From a virus (Duplodnaviria > Heunggongvirae > Uroviricota > Caudoviricetes), in IMG/VR virus record IMGVR_UViG_2671180415_000013: a DNA stretch of 9,732 nucleotides; one strand, 5' to 3'. Below, piece by piece: positions 1-9,490 of the stretch. The translations under genes were made by a program, and so were the position numbers. Each line of letters opens with the position of its first letter. Positions within the stretch are counted from its first letter, which is position 1. A model generated the notes under the pieces. That model was not told where the DNA came from. It worked only from the letters and a program-made list of their open reading frames with translations, and did not search any database.

Positions 1-91
1 GCTGTCGTTCTCAAAATCGGTGGAGCTGCATGACAAAGTCATCGGGCATTATCTGAACATAAAACACTATCAATAAGTTGGAGTCATTACC
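1..91 (+). mobile_element. IS1 right-end fragment (3' terminus with right inverted repeat at about 69-91); the window starts inside the element
   Basis: Positions 69-91 (atcaataagttggagtcattacc) match the IS1 right terminal repeat as I recall it, and are an imperfect inverse of the left repeat at 9643-9665. The preceding reading frame ends with the InsB C-terminus. Recognition is from memory, not a search. Confidence 0.8.
2..76 (+). CDS. insB: IS1 transposase InsB, C-terminal fragment (5' end lies outside the window)
   Basis: Frame 2 translates to ...LSFSKSVELHDKVIGHYLNIKHYQ followed by TAA at 74-76, which matches the InsB C-terminus as I remember it. The fragment is too short to appear in the ORF track. 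Confidence 0.7.
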   Translation: MSFSKSVELHDKVIGHYLNIKHYQ

Positions 92-223
92 AAACGGTTG
101 AAATGTATGCCGCTACTTACGGGTCCTGTAATCCTCTGAATAAACCAGAGGGAAAAGATGATTTCGACAAAATTTACCGCTTCTTGGAGGACCGCTATAT
201 CAAAAGCTTAGAGGACGCAGGGA

Positions 224-589
224 TCAAATCCCCAGTGAAGTCACCATTGTCCTGAGAACTTGCAGAACGTCATGATCATAACTTCCATCCAAACCGCGAC
301 GGCGAATTGCTTCTCGTATTACCGGAAGCAGTTCGCTGGAAATCTCGGTGCATATTTCACCTGATAATACGCTTGGCTCAAGTGAGAATATTGGTGAACT
401 TACGGTCTTGGTCTCGACAGTTTCAGAGTCAGTGCCAACATTATAAAGCTCAACGAAAGCGGTCTTGATTTTCCGGGCCAGATCTTTTGCTGGCTCGCTT
501 GCAATATCTTTCCCGATTTCTCGCAGCACAGAATGCAATGTATGAGCTGCTGTTTTCTGTACATCAGACGGTAAATCTTTAAATTCCAT
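224..589 (-). CDS. hypothetical protein (about 121 aa), function unknown
   Basis: ORF track 224..601. The internal ATG at 587-589 (MEFKDLPSDVQ...) is preceded on the minus strand by GAGG with a 6-nt spacer, so I prefer it to the ATG at 601. Its start lies 12 nt past the stop of the upstream small ORF. I recognise no family. Confidence 0.5.
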   Translation of the reverse strand: MEFKDLPSDVQKTAAHTLHSVLREIGKDIASEPAKDLARKIKTAFVELYNVGTDSETVETKTVSSPIFSLEPSVLSGEICTEISSELLPVIREAIRRRGLDGSYDHDVLQVLRTMVTSLGI

Positions 590-600
590 CGTCAGCCTCA

Positions 601-753
601 TCAGTCAGTGTTTCTGGCTAACCAGCAACGCGCGCCAGATTCGGTTTTAAACGTTTTGCTTTTGGTATACGTCATGGCGGTAAACGTTCCATCCTGGTTA
701 GGGAACACGCCGCACACCAGAGATTCGTTGTTGCCAAGATCGATAGTATCCAT
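601..753 (-). CDS. hypothetical small protein (about 50 aa from the internal ATG; the tracked ORF extends to 807)
   Basis: ORF track 601..807. The ATG at 751-753 (MDTIDLGNNES...) is preceded by GAGG with a 5-nt spacer, whereas the ATG at 805-807 has no recognisable SD. The SD-start context (atgaggtcagcATG) closely resembles that of the next gene (atgaggctgacgATG). Short, with no recognised family, so the coding call is weak. Confidence 0.35.
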   Translation of the reverse strand: MDTIDLGNNESLVCGVFPNQDGTFTAMTYTKSKTFKTESGARCWLARNTD

Positions 754-932
754 GCTGACCTCATTTCCCCTTAACGCCGGGGTGGCGGAACAAAAAACCT
801 GCTGCATAGTTAAAGATTGAACCCTGCCGTCATGTTCTTACGCCTCGGGCTGGCTACTTAACCCCTGACCACTGTCTGGTAACTCGAAGTATTGCCCTGC
901 ATTCTGTGGGGCGGGGTGGGTTGACGCCTGAA

Positions 933-977
933 ACAATAGCATCATTATTTTTTTTGATGTAAATAGCATCGCTATTG
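933..977. promoter_or_regulatory. Operator-like palindromes in the intergenic region downstream of the toxin gene (possible OL-like repressor sites)
   Basis: 961-977 AAATAGCatcGCTATTG is an inverted repeat with 6-bp arms and a 3-bp spacer. 933-949 ACAATAGCatcATTATT is a degenerate copy. Both resemble the perfect palindrome AAATAGTatcACTATTT at 2072-2088 in the repressor/cro intergenic region. Confidence 0.4.
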
Positions 978-990
978 TTTTTTGTTGGGG

Positions 991-1016
991 CAAGAAAAAA
1001 CCACCCTAAGGTGGTT
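991..1016 (-). terminator. Rho-independent terminator for the leftward repressor-antitoxin-toxin operon
   Basis: On the minus strand the stem AACCACC / GGTGGTT (plus coordinates 999-1016, 4-nt loop) is followed by TTTTCTTG. It lies 17 nt beyond the parE-like stop at 1033. The plus-strand reading of the same hairpin has no T-tract. Confidence 0.5.
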
Positions 1017-1032
1017 CTGTCGGCGGGAATAA

Positions 1033-1323
1033 TTAACTGTTTTTGCCTGGATACTGTCTTCGAGAATGCACAATATTTACTACTTCTATGCTTGATGCTG
1101 TTACTCGGTAAAGGATGATGTAGTTAGGATGAGTTACAATTTCACGAAGACCAAGAACTCGCTCGCTTGGAGGATACAGGTAAGGATGCTCTGTGAGCGG
1201 CAAAACGGATGTTTCAATTCGAATTTTCATTCTGCGTGCTGCCGCGGGATTTTCTTTAGCTATGTAGGCTACGATCTGGCGCAAATCATCACGAGCAGAT
1301 GGTAGCCATAAAACGGGTAACAT
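1033..1323 (-). CDS. parE: Type II toxin-antitoxin toxin, ParE/RelE family (96 aa)
   Basis: Translation MLPVLWLPSARDDLRQIVAYIAKENPAAARRM...LREIVTHPNYIILYRV...IEVVNIVHSRRQYP has the size and conserved pattern of ParE toxins. Its ATG (1321-1323) overlaps the stop of the upstream antitoxin ORF by 1 nt (TAATG). Confidence 0.85.
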   Translation of the reverse strand: MLPVLWLPSARDDLRQIVAYIAKENPAAARRMKIRIETSVLPLTEHPYLYPPSERVLGLREIVTHPNYIILYRVTASSIEVVNIVHSRRQYPGKNS

Positions 1324-1517
1324 TATTCACCTCTGTGAGTTGCAGCAGCAATTTGGGCAATAATTTGTTCCATTTCCGCCATTACCTCATCATGCGGAAT
1401 CGCCGGGCGGGGATCCGCGAGGCTTGCTGCTACTTTGGCCCGCAGCCATTCGTTGTAACTATTTTCTTGCTCAACTGTCTCAAATTCTGAAACCATTGGG
1501 GAAAGGACTGTACTCAT
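1323..1517 (-). CDS. paaA: Antitoxin, PaaA2-like small acidic antitoxin partner of ParE (64 aa)
   Basis: The 64-aa product MSTVLSPMVSEFETVEQENSYNEWLRAKVAASLADPRPAIPHDEVMAEMEQII... sits immediately upstream of, and is translationally coupled to, the ParE gene. SD GAGGAG lies 9 nt upstream of the ATG. It resembles the PaaA2 antitoxin of E. coli O157 prophage paaR-paaA-parE modules as I recall them. Confidence 0.7.
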   Translation of the reverse strand: MSTVLSPMVSEFETVEQENSYNEWLRAKVAASLADPRPAIPHDEVMAEMEQIIAQIAAATHRGE

Positions 1518-1536: not shown

Positions 1537-2037
1537 TTAGGCGCGACGGCCTTTTTGTGCAGCTAACCACCGCGCAACCGTACGATCCATTGATTCTTTT
1601 TTATCTTTCATCTCCTGAAGCATGTGTTCTTGATCTTCTTTCGGAAAAGCTCTGAACGTATGGATTAAATCTCGTTCCATCGGCTCTACGGCAAACGGTA
1701 GTTCATCCTCTGTTTGTTCTGTGTCTGCTGGTAATGCGACTATGTTATCTTGCTGTGGTTCTCGACAATACATCCTTGCAATTTGCAGCAAATCTACCAT
1801 GTCTGGCCTGATTGACTCAGGGGGAACTTTCAGTAAGCCAGCAAACTTTAGAACAGCCTCAAGGTTTAGTGGGGTTTGACCATTTAGGTAGTGACTTACC
1901 GCCCCTTGTGTTGAAAACCCCATAATTTCCGCCGCACGTTCCTGAGTCAATCCCAACTGAGATTTCTTTGCCATCCAGATTTCTTTCAGTCTTCTGGCGG
2001 CGTTGAGGTCGGTGTCTGACAATGATTTTCTTTTCAT
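1537..2037 (-). CDS. paaR: Prophage repressor with a lambda cI-like N-terminal HTH domain and no LexA/S24 peptidase domain (PaaR2-like), about 166 aa
   Basis: The N-terminus MKRKSLSDTDLNAARRLKEIWMAKKSQLGLTQERAAEIMGFSTQGAVSHYLNGQ... aligns by eye with the lambda cI N-terminus (...[47 protein letters not shown]...). The C-terminal ~85 aa are acidic and too short for an S24 domain. The tracked ORF extends to a GTG at 2067; I prefer the ATG at 2035-2037 from the cI alignment, but the start is uncertain. It is first in the operon with the antitoxin and toxin. Confidence 0.8.
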   Translation of the reverse strand: MKRKSLSDTDLNAARRLKEIWMAKKSQLGLTQERAAEIMGFSTQGAVSHYLNGQTPLNLEAVLKFAGLLKVPPESIRPDMVDLLQIARMYCREPQQDNIVALPADTEQTEDELPFAVEPMERDLIHTFRAFPKEDQEHMLQEMKDKKESMDRTVARWLAAQKGRRA

Positions 2038-2148
2038 ACATCCAATTCTAATAAGATTGCTAATCACTTTGAAATAGTATCACTATTTACTTTTAAAAAT
2101 AACAGTGCTATTAATTATGCATTGGTAACACATCACATAGGGCGGATT
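2038..2148. promoter_or_regulatory. Divergent immunity control region (PRM/PR-like) with operator palindromes
   Basis: Perfect 17-bp palindrome AAATAGTatcACTATTT at 2072-2088, and a related degenerate site at 2097-2115. A candidate rightward promoter is TTTACT (2086-2091), 17-nt spacer, TATTAA (2109-2114), overlapped by both sites. It lies between the leftward repressor gene and the rightward cro-like gene. Confidence 0.6.
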
Positions 2149-6578: not shown

Positions 6579-8411
6579 ATGGCCCGCATGTTTGATACAT
6601 TAGGATTTTACATTATGAATGTGCAACATTTTGATTTTTTTACAGATAATGAGTTTTCTAATCTGGAAAGATATCAAACTTGTAAAGCCATGGCCAAAGG
6701 TTATGCGGGCAATTACAAAACCGGGCAGTCAAGGTTGATGCATGCCCGCTCATACTGCTTCAGCATCGTAGCTGCATATTGGGATACCCTTGCAAAAAAG
6801 CAAAAAAGCAGCATTAAAATGAGGGCAGTACCGCACACTGTTTACATAGAAGACATTCCATGTGATGCACGCGAGCTCGCTGAACGAACAGGTGAGCTTA
6901 TTGCTCAATTTCCGGCGGAGGACGCTGGATATCTGATTGGGTCAATTTATACGGTAATGCTGCCATCCGCTTACCGTTCGGAATTGGGGGCTTACTATAC
7001 CCCCCCACCTTTGGTAGCGCGTCTCTTGGACCTGGCTGAAAAGTCTGGTGTTGATTTTTCTCATGCATCGGTTATTGATCCTGCGTGTGGTGGCGGTGCA
7101 TTTTTGGCACCAGTAGCCATTCGAATGTTAAAAAAAGACAAGGGGTCTTCCCCTGAATGGATGTTGAGGAGAATCAGTCGTCGTTTAAAGGGGATAGAGA
7201 TCGATCCATTTGCGGCTTGGATGAGTTTGGTATTGCTCGAATCTGTACTAATGCCACTATGTGTAAAGGTAAAACGTAGATTGCCTGAAGATACAATTAT
7301 TGTTGCTGATGCGCTTCAGCAAGATAAATTTTCTGGTTATGATCTTGTGGTAGGGAATCCGCCTTACGGACGTGTCACTCTCGATATTAAAACGAGAGAA
7401 AAATATTCTCGTTCGTTATTTGGTCATGCAAATCTATATGGATTGTTCACCGACTTAGCTGTTCGCATGGTTAAAGAGAAAACAGGAGTTATTGCATTTC
7501 TTACGCCAACTTCTTTTCTTGGTGGGCAGTATTTCACCGCGCTGCGAACCCTTTTGACCGAAAAAACTACTCCGTATGCCCTTGATTTCGTCACTGACAG
7601 GGATGGGGTCTTTGACGATGTTCTCCAGGAAACAATGTTGACAGCATTCAAGGCGGGAGAACATAAAGTTCGGGCCCAGGTATCCTCACTTGTCCCTAAG
7701 GGGTTGAACAAAGCAAAAATTGAGAAAATAGGTAATGTTGATATAGAAAAAGGTGGAGCAACGTGGCTTTTGCCACGCGTTAAAGATGATGCCTGTTTTC
7801 TTAATGTATTAAAACAGATGTCTACGCGTTTAGCTGATCTGGGATACTCAGTCTCTACAGGTCAGTTAGTCTGGAATCGATTTAAGTCGCAGTTGCGTAC
7901 GACGAAAGGAAAAAATAGCTACCCATTAGTCTGGGCGGAATCAATAACTTCAGCTGGTTTTCGTTTTAGTGCAGACAGAAAAAATCATGTTCCCTATATC
8001 GATATAACCCCACAACAGGGTTTCCTTGTGACAAAATCTGAATGTGTGCTTGTTCAGCGGACAACATCGAAGGAACAGGACAGAAGGATTTTAGCGGCAA
8101 TTTTACCTCAGGGATTTATAGATGAAACTGGTGGCGTAGTAGTTGAAAACCATATTAATATTGTATATTCAAACGGATTGTTCTCTGCGGTTCGCCCTGA
8201 TGTTATTGATATGCTACTTAATTCGCATGTTGTCGATCGGGCGTTCAGGTGTATAAGCGGAAGTGTTGCTGTTTCGGCCTATGAATTGCATTCAATCCCG
8301 TTGCCTTCTCTGGAGCAGGTGATGGAGATTCAATCGTTAATTGATGCTGGCGTCCACAGACGGATTATTGAGAGAACTATCGCTGGTTTCTATGGAGTGA
8401 TGATTGCATGA
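6579..8411 (+). CDS. N6-adenine DNA methyltransferase, gamma-class (Eco57I/TaqI-like N6_Mtase fold) with a C-terminal target-recognition region
   Basis: Motif order X then I then IV: GAYYTPPPLVARLL (motif X), VIDPACGGGAFLAP (AdoMet-binding motif I), DLVVGNPPYGRV (catalytic NPPY motif IV), followed by about 300 aa of putative TRD. The start is uncertain among ATGs at 6579, 6588 and 6615. The TGA stop overlaps the ATG of the next gene (ATGA at 8408-8411). Confidence 0.9.
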   Translation: MARMFDTLGFYIMNVQHFDFFTDNEFSNLERYQTCKAMAKGYAGNYKTGQSRLMHARSYCFSIVAAYWDTLAKKQKSSIKMRAVPHTVYIEDIPCDARELAERTGELIAQFPAEDAGYLIGSIYTVMLPSAYRSELGAYYTPPPLVARLLDLAEKSGVDFSHASVIDPACGGGAFLAPVAIRMLKKDKGSSPEWMLRRISRRLKGIEIDPFAAWMSLVLLESVLMPLCVKVKRRLPEDTIIVADALQQDKFSGYDLVVGNPPYGRVTLDIKTREKYSRSLFGHANLYGLFTDLAVRMVKEKTGVIAFLTPTSFLGGQYFTALRTLLTEKTTPYALDFVTDRDGVFDDVLQETMLTAFKAGEHKVRAQVSSLVPKGLNKAKIEKIGNVDIEKGGATWLLPRVKDDACFLNVLKQMSTRLADLGYSVSTGQLVWNRFKSQLRTTKGKNSYPLVWAESITSAGFRFSADRKNHVPYIDITPQQGFLVTKSECVLVQRTTSKEQDRRILAAILPQGFIDETGGVVVENHINIVYSNGLFSAVRPDVIDMLLNSHVVDRAFRCISGSVAVSAYELHSIPLPSLEQVMEIQSLIDAGVHRRIIERTIAGFYGVMIA

Positions 8412-9490
8412 ATCTGCCTGTTGTTCCCCCATTGAATGTTATCCGGGAAAGATTACAATTAATTTTCCCTGAAGGGACTGAGAATCGTGGATATTTAATT
8501 CGGGAAATAGCTGCAAAAACAATTTTTGTCATGTTTTATGCTGGTGCGGTTGAGGGGCTGGGGCGATGGATAAGGCCCAGCCAGGTTGTAAGTATGGGAG
8601 ATTCGCAGGCTGCTCTTACTGATGATGCGTCCAGAGAAAGCTGGGTAAAGATGACTTTCTCTAAACAAAAGATAAGGCCTGCTGATGCATGGTATGCGGA
8701 AAATACGCGTGAGCCAATACGTGATGAAACTATAAAAAATGGCCTAATACCTTGCAATGCAATTGTTGAGCGTAAAGGTATACCCACCACATCCTCTCGT
8801 CCTCGTTACAGTTTGAATCGCTCTTTTGCAGCACTCTTTGATGCCGGGCTTGAAGGAGATTCGCTGCTGAGTGCAATAAGTTCCTGGCAAGAAAATCATT
8901 TGAACAAAGCCGCTCTTGCTAGGTTGCGTTTATTGAAATCAGGGGCAGTGATTGCTGCTGATGCCGTAGTCGTCACTTTCCCAAATGGAGAGAAGAGAAC
9001 TTTAGCTCCGGGCCCGTCAAGTACAATAGCTAAGGCCGTCATCGAAGTTTTTGCTCCTAATTTTCTTAAGAATCCAACTGTGCTCTGGTTGTCTGAATCC
9101 GGGAATAAAGTTGTTGCTCAGGATGATGTATTGGCAAAAGCATTGGGGCTGAATATTGATGCCTCAAAAGCACTTCCAGATATTATTTTGATTGATTTGG
9201 GAGAGGACCGAACGGGTTCGGACATGCTTGTAGTTTTCACTGAAGTAGTTGCGACAGATGGGCCTATAAACAGGGAACGAAAAGTTACTCTCACTCATTT
9301 GGCTATTGACGCTGGGTTCAGCGAGAAAAATCTTGCATTCCTTACGGCATTTATGGACAGAAGTGCTCTGCCTTTTAAAAAGGCAATACCAGAATTGGCG
9401 TGGGGATCTTATGCATGGTTTGCTTCTGAACCGGAGCACTTAATTGATCTTCGGGATGGTTATCCGGTAAAGATCAGCCAGAGAAAATGA
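8408..9490 (+). CDS. Uncharacterised 360-aa protein translationally coupled to the methyltransferase; candidate cognate restriction endonuclease (possibly BsuBI/PstI-like), unverified
   Basis: Confident as a gene: long ORF, same strand, 4-nt overlap with the MTase stop, GGAG 10 nt upstream, same AT-richer composition as the MTase. The function is inferred only from context; I cannot point to a canonical PD-(D/E)xK motif by eye. The segment DIILIDLGEDRTGSDMLVVFTEVVATDG is a possible degenerate nuclease core. Confidence 0.6.
   Translation: MNLPVVPPLNVIRERLQLIFPEGTENRGYLIREIAAKTIFVMFYAGAVEGLGRWIRPSQVVSMGDSQAALTDDASRESWVKMTFSKQKIRPADAWYAENTREPIRDETIKNGLIPCNAIVERKGIPTTSSRPRYSLNRSFAALFDAGLEGDSLLSAISSWQENHLNKAALARLRLLKSGAVIAADAVVVTFPNGEKRTLAPGPSSTIAKAVIEVFAPNFLKNPTVLWLSESGNKVVAQDDVLAKALGLNIDASKALPDIILIDLGEDRTGSDMLVVFTEVVATDGPINRERKVTLTHLAIDAGFSEKNLAFLTAFMDRSALPFKKAIPELAWGSYAWFASEPEHLIDLRDGYPVKISQRK

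Follow-up and report, generated by a model that had tools for sequence, protein, structure and literature searches.

The dicBF operon of the Qin prophage of Escherichia coli K-12 is expressed as a transcript starting upstream of ydfA (bioRxiv 2023.04.14.536235). The products of ydfA, ydfB, and ydfC have been described as 'small proteins of unknown function', and induction from Plac of an operon devoid of dicF and dicB and still expressing ydfABC did not inhibit growth (PMC5069750). In the Rac prophage, expression of ydaF and ydaG was increased about 40-fold in C-protein-expressing cells with reduced racR expression (PMC6765115). The corresponding region of CP-933P (O157:H7) comprises the CI-like PaaR2, PaaA2, and ParE2, a terminator, an OL/PL region with operators matching OR, and small ORFs; PaaR2 and YdaS reduce expression from its promoter, PL933P, about 100-fold (PMC8630535). 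In lambda, the accessory genes of the PL and exo-xis regions (ral, sieB, cIII, kil, and the ea and orf genes) are small, non-essential, and mosaic early-left genes expressed upon derepression.

We have analyzed a stretch of 9,732 nucleotides of phage DNA, referred to as the window, which harbors two small leftward genes, designated A and B. Comparison with Qin revealed that the product of gene A shares 90% identity with YdfA of K-12, that the gene comes first in a unit placed behind a repressor-controlled promoter, putative in the window, and that a conserved leader is common to both. In intact relatives, the unit containing gene A runs on to DicF, dicB, and ydfD, as in Qin. In contrast to Qin, the second slot is occupied by gene B and a convergent gene, orf66, in place of ydfB-ydfC, with no detectable homology. 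In addition, a PaaR2-like repressor takes the place of DicA, and dicF and dicB have been removed by IS1.

The similarity to Rac involves YdaF, which is also a DUF1391 protein, the long C-rich leader and leader core common to both loci, a convergent gene (sieB) abutting the 3' end of the pair, and the derepression described above. However, the order is reversed in Rac (ydaG, then ydaF), the gene encoding the N-terminal domain of gene B (N-domain gene) is absent, and the division inhibitor gene located downstream is kilR rather than dicB. The arrangement of the immunity region is that of CP-933P, although the operator is AATAG-N5-YTATT instead of the reported GTTTAGTAA consensus (PMC8630535), with two sites per region in place of three or four. 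The window's immunity region is only about 80% identical to most of its E. coli relatives, indicating a different immunity specificity. No sequence or fold similarity to the lambda accessory genes was found, and the comparison with them is by position and size only.

Organization of the locus and truncation by IS1

In ETEC4090 and phage mEp460, gene A is followed by gene B, orf66, DicF, dicB, ydfD, exo, xis, and int. DicF was detected by Rfam in locus L001 (72.5 bits), and dicB was present downstream in 55 loci of a sample of 84, which is dominated by near-identical loci. Since the uninterrupted orthologues run on into these genes, gene A and gene B are the promoter-proximal end of an early-left, dicBF-type PL operon of a Qin/Rac/CP-933P-like lambdoid prophage. 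The pair is not a new system but the already catalogued, uncharacterized front end of the dicBF/PL operon of many E. coli and Shigella prophages. The prophage itself is a defective member of this type, most probably residing in Shigella sonnei.

The left end of the window matches, at 100%, IS1 family transposase elements annotated in over 5000 plasmid records. The window becomes homologous to uninterrupted prophage loci at position 92, defining an IS1 junction at 91/92, which lies 132 nt from the stop codon of gene B and is identical in three IMG/VR contigs (L008, L009, and L013). A search of the window downstream of the pair, in the same orientation, revealed neither DicF nor dicB; IS1 stands there instead. 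The window is therefore a decapitated remnant of a dicBF-type operon, in which IS1 has severed dicF and dicB from PL. The insertion also truncated orf66, removing its first 12 codons, its Shine-Dalgarno sequence, and the upstream region. The remnant matches phrog_34441 (E = 6e-36), with no PADLOC match at E ≤ 0.1 and no Pfam match. The full-length form of 66 residues is annotated in L001 and mEp460, and 'partial' proteins of S. sonnei match the truncated form.

Table 1. Positions of the features discussed, numbered from the first nucleotide of the window.
Feature	Position	Strand	Description
IS1 end	1-91	.	Terminal 91 nt; element continues past the left edge of the window
orf66 3' remnant (phrog_34441)	92-255	+	Remaining ORF 103-255; convergent with gene B, 32-nt 3' overlap
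Gene B	589-224	-	ATG 589, stop 226-224, 121 aa
Gene B, parts of the protein			N-terminal helical hairpin 1-54; disordered acidic linker ~55-86; C-terminal two-helix part 87-119
Intercistronic spacer	590-600	-	11 nt; gene B Shine-Dalgarno GAGG 599-596
Gene A, DUF1391 protein, YdfA (Qin)/YdaF (Rac) homologue	753-601	-	ATG 753, stop TGA 603-601, 50 aa
Conserved 5' leader core GTTCCGCCACCCCGGCGTTAAGGGGAAATGAGGTCAGC	754-791	-	Non-coding; holds gene A Shine-Dalgarno GAGG 762-759
Long untranslated leader, putative PL start to core	792-932	-	Common to the upstream region of Rac ydaG (alignment); C-rich ~897-916
OL-like operator pair (935-949, 962-976) and putative PL	933-976	-	-35 TTTACA 963-958, extended -10 TGcTATTGT 941-933, 19-nt spacer
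Intrinsic terminator of paaR2-paaA2-parE2 operon	994-1021	-	9-bp stem then UUUUUUC; -15.1 kcal/mol, z = -3.1
parE2-like toxin	1033-1323	-	Pfam ParE_toxin 1.8e-17
paaA2-like antitoxin	1323-1517	-	Pfam PaaA2 3e-23
paaR2-like HTH repressor (CI analogue)	1537-2067	-	Pfam HTH_3 9e-9
OR-like operator pair (2073-2087, 2098-2112)	2073-2112	.	Between the paaR2-like gene and cro-like ydaS

On the other side, the pair is bordered by the hairpin and U-run of an intrinsic terminator (Table 1), in agreement with the location between IS1 and an operon terminator proposed in an earlier note based on inspection of the sequence. This terminator belongs to a leftward operon encoding an HTH repressor, PaaA2, and ParE, which is divergent from a ydaS/ydaT pair (Pfam HTH_3, PaaA2, ParE_toxin, and YdaT_toxin). 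The window contains the 15-bp motif AATAG-N5-YTATT at four sites only, one pair at OL and another at OR (6 strand matches versus 0.03 expected by chance). The recurrence of the motif at OR substantiates the proposal that the genes occupy the position of PL-operon accessory genes, directly downstream of operator-like palindromes. The hexamers of the putative PL were inferred from an alignment with the Rac promoter; a consensus promoter scan did not pick up this candidate, which has a 19-nt spacer.

The leader core is common to loci differing by their first gene, which is ydfA, ydaG (Rac), or ydfB (L061). The remainder of the leader, up to the putative start of PL, showed no structure beyond that of shuffled sequence (z = +1.5) and had no Rfam match.

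Coding status of gene A and gene B

The two minus-strand ORFs were found as previously described, except that the earlier ends, 604 and 227, omit the stop codons, which extend to 601 and 224, respectively. The distance separating the genes was given as 12 nt; it is 11 nt from stop codon to ATG and 14 nt from the last sense codon to ATG. The 14-nt junction is identical in all loci in which YdfA precedes an N-domain gene. The start contexts are those reported, ggggaaATGAGGTCAGC-ATG and ctgATGAGGCTGACG-ATG, each with a GAGG sequence. Their similarity is that of two ordinary Shine-Dalgarno contexts, and the proteins encoded by gene A and gene B are unrelated.

ORF size alone was not informative, since many spurious ORFs of 60 to 150 residues are present in the window. 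Homology and dN/dS ratios establish that both genes are real. For gene A, dN/dS was about 0.1-0.2 with dS values of up to about 1. For gene B, it was 0.15-0.6, with no indel among orthologues displaying 75-100% identity. As judged from this pattern of conservation, gene A and gene B are separate, genuine protein-coding genes under purifying selection.

The suggestion that a single gene had been split by a frameshift, or that the region is non-coding or codes for an RNA, has in its favor no more than the resemblance between the start contexts and the tight spacing, and we attribute virtually no probability to it. The conserved separate frames already refute this reading: DUF1391 is complete in the 50 residues of gene A (profile positions 1-47 of 48), purifying selection acts on both frames, and their lengths are constant across hundreds of genomes. 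The two proteins also assort independently, as gene A is followed elsewhere by ydfB-ydfC behind the same immunity region and gene B lacks an upstream gene A in 10 of the 84 loci. Both frames being conserved, the absence of conservation or replacement by a conserved RNA envisaged in the earlier note was not observed. A conserved non-coding RNA was ruled out by Rfam searches, which returned no match above the gathering threshold in the whole window and none at E ≤ 1 for positions 1-1100.

Gene A belongs to the YdfA/YdaF family

Neither protein had been recognized by inspection of the sequence. Gene A encodes a full-length Pfam DUF1391 (PF07151) protein of the YdfA/YdaF type (E = 1.3e-28; 98.9 bits for a gathering cut-off of 27.3). 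Its homologues form 303 clusters, with at least 80% identity among the 120 matches listed. It is a stand-alone protein of about 50 residues encoded in the early-left region next to the repressor, as the first gene after OL/PL, a location that matches that of its Qin counterpart and is close to that of its Rac counterpart. Searches of Pfam, NCBIfam, PADLOC, and PDB sequences for a function of gene A retrieved DUF1391 only, and the literature on DUF1391, ydfA, ydaF, and ydaG provided expression data and no functional assignment. The gene designated 'ydfA' in pUA1135 is a plasmid-borne gene of the ibfA operon (PMC12111858).

A 68-residue form of gene A starting at the in-frame ATG 807 was rejected, because the Pfam match begins at the internal methionine, a Shine-Dalgarno sequence is absent before position 807, and the extension is disrupted by 1-nt indels among the leader variants of relatives.

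Gene B is a modular protein

Gene B matches phrog_33007 over its full length (1-121 of 121; E = 4.4e-80), and its exact sequence carries the names 'hypothetical protein [Shigella sonnei]' and Ybl81. Searches of Pfam, NCBIfam, PADLOC, and PDB sequences returned no match. The 22 close homologues originate, where the source is named, from Enterobacterales. The N-terminal hairpin was predicted by AF2 with a pLDDT of about 95, and the dN/dS ratio was 0.22 for this domain, 0.53 for the middle part, and 0.34 for the C-terminal part. About 95 protein clusters contain the hairpin, alone or fused to unrelated tails, and many of these proteins are stand-alone forms of about 50-66 residues. A Pfam scan of all 93 members of the N-domain family for informative fusions gave chance-level matches only and no Pfam domain. 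N-domain homologues of Stx phages are encoded downstream of the recombination genes, within the early-left region. Gene B is an uncharacterized modular protein whose conserved hairpin of about 50 residues is found in many enterobacterial prophages and Stx phages. It defines a helical-hairpin family devoid of a Pfam model, with swappable tails, that extends to Stx-converting phages.

An alternative ATG (601-599) overlaps the stop codon of gene A (TGATG) and would lead to a product of 125 residues. This form is less likely, as nearly all members of the N-domain family start with MEF or MKF and the PGAP annotation corresponds to the 121-residue form. Homology of gene B to YdfB or YdfC, whose cassette it replaces, was also discarded, the N-domain profile showing no homology to either. 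The negative GRAVY values of gene A and gene B and their pI of about 5 point to soluble, non-membrane proteins.

Proposed role of the pair and alternative explanations

We consider it probable, on balance, that gene A and gene B are ordinary early-operon genes, silent in the lysogen and derepressed at PL, encoding protein-binding accessory factors. The architecture and the homologous loci suggest that the pair would be kept silent in the lysogen by the PaaR2-like CI analogue bound to the two OL operators overlapping the putative PL, and would be transcribed once repression is lifted. The two cistrons may then be translated in close succession, owing to the 11-nt gap, the GAGG sequences, and a possible spacer hairpin, GUUAGCC/GGCUGAC, which would mask the Shine-Dalgarno sequence of gene B (z = -2.4). 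We tentatively propose that the products are small, soluble, non-enzymatic protein binders acting in early lytic development, possibly accessory factors of the lambda PL kind rather than essential regulators. Searches with the PADLOC models of defence proteins gave no match for gene A or gene B at E ≤ 0.1. The extreme conservation of gene A (at least 80% identity in the homologues listed) would be equally compatible with binding to nucleic acids or a role in regulation.

Of the proposal that A and B are two coupled small proteins, close translational packing is at most what stands, and an obligate partnership does not. An obligate, translationally coupled pair, forming a heterocomplex or a type II toxin-antitoxin-like system, would account for the 11-nt gap, the alternative overlapping stop and start codons, and the possible masking hairpin, and YdfA is encoded directly upstream of an N-domain gene in 70 of the 84 loci. 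However, the latter proportion is weighted by the near-identical loci dominating the sample, and the partners are exchanged. In FDAARGOS_944, a 99%-identical immunity region is followed by ydfA-ydfB-ydfC-dicB; in Rac, the partner of the DUF1391 gene is ydaG; and gene B is found without gene A in the 10 loci mentioned above. In L062, gene B directly follows a CI-type repressor gene, with no gene A. The association of a near-identical immunity region with ydfA-ydfB-ydfC suggests that A and B assort as independent cassettes. No match was obtained with toxin or antitoxin families of Pfam, NCBIfam, and PADLOC, and the lack of growth inhibition upon expression of ydfABC in K-12 (PMC5069750) suggests that the function is not that of a toxin. 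Obligate pairing is thus very improbable. We give equally little credence to the proposal that gene A, alone or with gene B, is an analogue of N in a lambdoid group devoid of N, acting at a nut-like leader element for passage through the DicF terminator. The position of the first gene after PL, the conservation of the leader core whatever the first gene, and the lack of an N-like gene in the annotations of mEp460 and ETEC4090 are compatible with this role, as is the leader sequence CAATCTTTAAC, which may resemble boxA. However, neither protein contains an arginine-rich motif, and the leader remains constant when the first gene varies (ydfA, ydaG, or ydfB), and hence shows no co-variation with gene A. 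About 10 loci have a CGCG variant that disrupts the candidate hairpin, CGCY-ACCCC-RGCG, the leader is not more structured than shuffled sequences, and no Rfam match was found. These results lend no support to a nut site or a structured RNA in the leader.

A different function is conceivable for the C-terminal part of gene B, which may form a two-gene module with orf66. In this module, orf66 would be an exclusion or toxin-like 'moron' produced from a promoter of its own in the lysogen, neutralized by gene B made from PL, and shut off by antisense transcription from PL. The two sequences are associated in 67 of 67 loci, with a constant overlap and 74-100% identity of the C-terminal part. In L090 and L094, the first gene downstream of PL encodes a protein of 129 residues with another N-terminus and a homologous C-domain (36% over 39 aa, E = 1e-7), and here, too, the gene converges on and overlaps an orf66 homologue (54-57% identity). 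In addition, the dN/dS of orf66 (0.1-0.3) denotes purifying selection, a good Shine-Dalgarno sequence precedes the gene, and sieB occupies the equivalent convergent position beside ydaF in Rac. However, the physical overlap of 32-56 nt alone hinders separation by recombination, Cedecea phages harbor a lone orf66 homologue between cro-like and CP76 genes, a search for a sigma-70 promoter of orf66 gave no convincing candidate, and both gene B and orf66 are without a PADLOC or Pfam match. We regard this module as unlikely, and slightly more so in the wider form of an undescribed prophage module beside the immunity region, in which the N-terminal hairpin would be a generic handle fused to differing neutralizing tails and the recurrent IS1 knock-out of orf66 in S. 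sonnei would be a selected loss. The co-travelling gene B tail and orf66 provide a concrete, testable hypothesis.

In the favored reading, that of accessory factors expressed from PL, the hairpin of gene B may serve as a common handle and the exchangeable C-terminal part may determine specificity, probably in relation to the co-inherited orf66, a proposal made with low confidence; A and B would assort as independent cassettes, with no obligate pairing. Since YdfA/YdaF displays very strong conservation and its gene is the first to be expressed upon derepression, any function of gene A would be relevant to most E. coli genomes. Uncoupling of the toxic dicF/dicB part of the operon from PL by IS1 provides a further example of IS-driven prophage domestication in Shigella.

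Gene A and gene B are separate coding genes

ORFs of the size of gene A and gene B commonly arise by chance within the window, and the reality of these genes must therefore rest on conservation. The product of gene A matched Pfam DUF1391 over profile positions 1-47 of 48 (98.9 bits for a cut-off of 27.3) and was 90% identical to K-12 YdfA, Rac YdaF being also close. Homologous clusters numbered 303, with at least 80% identity in all 120 listed, and pairwise dN/dS was approximately 0.1-0.2 for dS of up to approximately 1. For gene B, searches of Pfam, NCBIfam, and PADLOC returned no match, and phrog_33007 matched the protein end to end. Its 22 close homologues were all from Enterobacterales where a source was named, and orthologues at 75-100% identity had the same length. 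The dN/dS ratio of gene B was 0.15-0.6 overall; by segment, the N-terminal helical hairpin (N-domain) had 0.22, the linker 0.53, and the remaining tail (C-part) 0.34.

Gene A and gene B are thus real, separate genes. The earlier note had proposed, as one possibility, a single gene split by a frameshift; this is excluded since the reading frames are conserved in orthologues and each gene has its own family match. An Rfam search over the region returned no match. Neither the unconserved frames nor the non-coding RNA that the note had set against coding function was found. Both ORFs that it described are present, but its ends, 604 and 227, leave out the stop codons, and the gap is 11 nt, not 12, counted from the gene A stop. 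The start contexts are as it quoted, ATGAGGTCAGC-ATG and ATGAGGCTGACG-ATG, with GAGG 7-8 nt upstream of both ATG codons, and the flanks (IS1 end, upstream-operon terminator, and palindromes) are as it described them.

Longer forms had no support for either gene. For gene A, a start at ATG 807 is contradicted by 1-nt indels in the leader of relatives. For gene B, a start at ATG 601 conflicts with the N-domain family, which nearly always starts with MEF or MKF, and with the PGAP annotation, which is the 121-aa form. In phage records H28, H30, and H32, the gene matching window 610-923, in the gene A region, is labelled 'head-DNA stabilization protein D'. This is probably an annotation error, because the sole support found for the label was a PDB similarity no better than chance (E = 0.35 over 22 residues).

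Features of the window.
Feature	Position	Strand	Remarks
IS1 end	1-91		perfect match
orf66, 3' part	92-255 (remaining ORF 103-255)	+	66-aa gene, phrog_34441
Gene B	ATG 589 to stop 226-224	-	121 aa, read from sequence
Intercistronic pairing	575-625	-	z = -2.4 vs shuffles
Gene A	ATG 753 to stop 603-601	-	50 aa, read from sequence
Leader core	754-791	-	38 nt, GTTCCGCYACCCCRGCGTTAAGGGGAAATGAGGTCAGC
Long untranslated leader	792-932	-	
C-rich, G-poor stretch	~897-916		CAACCCACCCCGCCCCACAG
Putative PL	-35, 963-958; -10, 941-933		TTTACA; extended TGcTATTGT
Two 15-bp palindromes	935-949 and 962-976		
OL sites (the same two palindromes)	935-976		AATAG-N5-YTATT
Terminator of upstream operon	~994-1021		9-bp hairpin and U-run, -15.1 kcal/mol, z = -3.1
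paaR2-like HTH repressor, then paaA2, parE2	after ydaT/ydaS, reading leftward		Pfam
Two OR sites	2073-2112		AATAG-N5-YTATT
ydaT-like and cro-like ydaS genes	rightmost, in leftward reading order	+	
Predicted restriction-modification module	6579-9490	+	ORFs of 610 aa and 360 aa

The pair lies behind a PaaR2-type immunity region

Leftward of parE2 come a terminator, the operators, the two genes, and IS1. From ydaT and ydaS onward, the arrangement has the layout of the CP-933P immunity region. In CP-933P, PaaR2 acts as the counterpart of CI and YdaS as that of Cro, and PL933P, a promoter downstream of parE2, is repressed approximately 100-fold by both (PMC8630535). The motif AATAG-N5-YTATT occurred at exactly four sites in the window, compared with 0.03 matches expected by chance, and differs from the published CP-933P operator consensus. 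Matches at 99% to the immunity region were found in only 2 of 5426 complete E. coli genomes, the rest being at approximately 80%. Judged on this rarity and on the unlike operator, the region is a distinct immunity type. The putative PL hexamers were placed by alignment with the Rac promoter; their spacer is long (19 nt), and a consensus promoter scan did not call them. Operators and homologous systems provide the basis for the predicted regulation of the pair.

The early-right region carries two large ORFs. In E. coli, their counterparts bear the annotations HsdM-family methyltransferase and BsuBI/PstI-family type II restriction endonuclease, from which the two ORFs are predicted to be a prophage-borne restriction-modification module.

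IS1 truncates a dicBF-type operon

In two intact relatives, E. coli ETEC4090 and the genome record of phage mEp460, the order is gene A, gene B, the convergent 66-aa gene, DicF (Rfam, 72.5 bits), dicB, ydfD, exonuclease, xis, and int. This is the operon type of Qin dicBF, in which ydfA, ydfB, and ydfC, of unknown function, are promoter-proximal (PMC5069750). The K-12 dicBF transcript starts upstream of ydfA (bioRxiv 2023.04.14.536235), and Rac ydaF and ydaG are up approximately 40-fold in C-protein-expressing cells, in which racR expression is down (PMC6765115); both data sets fit a dicBF/PL operon.

Homology of the window to intact loci ends at position 92. Loci L010 and L011 have this allele without the interruption, and the IS1 junction is shared with L008, L009, and L013. 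In the window, IS1 has detached dicF and dicB from PL. The truncation of the operon by IS1 is well supported, as are the identity of the two genes, their coding status, and their place in the operon, where the pair stands at the head of a known operon type. A protein identical to that of gene B and the truncated form of orf66 both have Shigella sonnei as their named source, making S. sonnei the most likely source of the window. Contigs L005, L006, and L007 carry this enterobacterial prophage module at 83-98% identity within MAGs named Veillonella parvula, Geobacteraceae, and 'Proteobacteria', a placement likely due to binning contamination.

Leader and intercistronic RNA

The leader core is conserved directly 5' of the first gene after PL, whatever that gene is (ydfA, Rac ydaG, or, in locus L061, ydfB), and persists where the promoters and operators in front of it are unrelated (L003, L061, and L088). 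A small CGCY-ACCCC-RGCG hairpin is possible; a CGCG variant breaks the pairing. The long untranslated leader also occurs upstream of Rac ydaG and has less structure than shuffled sequence; with its C-rich stretch it resembles a Rho-loading (rut) site, for which it is a candidate. Between the genes, base pairing is possible between the final codons of gene A (GUUAGCC) and the Shine-Dalgarno region of gene B (GGCUGAC), so that gene B translation would depend on ribosomes completing gene A; the pairing is kept only partly in variants.

Gene A and gene B assort as cassettes

A gene B profile search of 1.84 billion representatives returned 95 clusters, 22 with E ≤ 1e-10, nearly all aligning to residues 1 to ~55 only. 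Many N-domain proteins stand alone (50-66 aa), others bear unrelated tails of up to ~200 aa, and no Pfam domain was found among family members. The N-domain profile showed no homology to YdfB or YdfC. The AF2 model of gene B, built from a 93-sequence alignment, predicts a helix-loop-helix hairpin (helices 8-25 and 31-54, pLDDT ~95), a disordered acidic linker (59-80), and two C-terminal helices (pLDDT ~70-79).

At 84 loci with an N-domain gene, a sample biased to near-identical sequences, the gene directly upstream was YdfA in 70, YdfA-YdfB in 4, YdfB only in 1, and another neighbour in 9. In E. coli FDAARGOS_944 (L096, 2066-3356), the immunity region is 99% identical and the genes behind it are ydfA-ydfB-ydfC-dicB in place of ydfA-geneB-orf66, a clean case of second-slot exchange. 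One Enterobacter-like phage contig has gene B immediately after a CI/S24 repressor. Given these varying neighbours, gene A and gene B are independently assorting cassettes, tightly packed in one operon.

Function of the pair and the link of gene B to orf66

Neither the literature nor this analysis assigns an activity to gene A or gene B. Both products are, from sequence, small, soluble, and mildly acidic; K-12 ydfABC expression did not inhibit growth, and PADLOC detected no defence or toxin-antitoxin signature for the pair. As a guess at their biochemical role, held with low confidence, they may be early-expressed, small protein-binding accessory factors. The finding is real but ordinary, combining the known DUF1391 family with an already catalogued, uncharacterised phage protein; it offers one mildly novel lead, the connection of the gene B tail with orf66.

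The latter gene is convergent with gene B, overlaps its 3' end by 32 nt, has a good Shine-Dalgarno sequence, and is under purifying selection (dN/dS 0.1-0.3); in the window, IS1 took its first 12 codons, Shine-Dalgarno sequence, and promoter region. All 67 of the 67 loci with the C-part also carried orf66. Two divergent phage contigs have a first PL gene (129 aa) with a different N-terminus and a homologous C-domain (E = 1e-7), and there too an orf66 homologue (54-57% identity) is convergent with it. This association is suggestive of a functional pair, and physical overlap could partly account for it. Gene B might, with low confidence, comprise a handle plus a specificity tail, possibly aimed at orf66. 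In Cedecea phages, the orf66 homologue stands alone, elsewhere.
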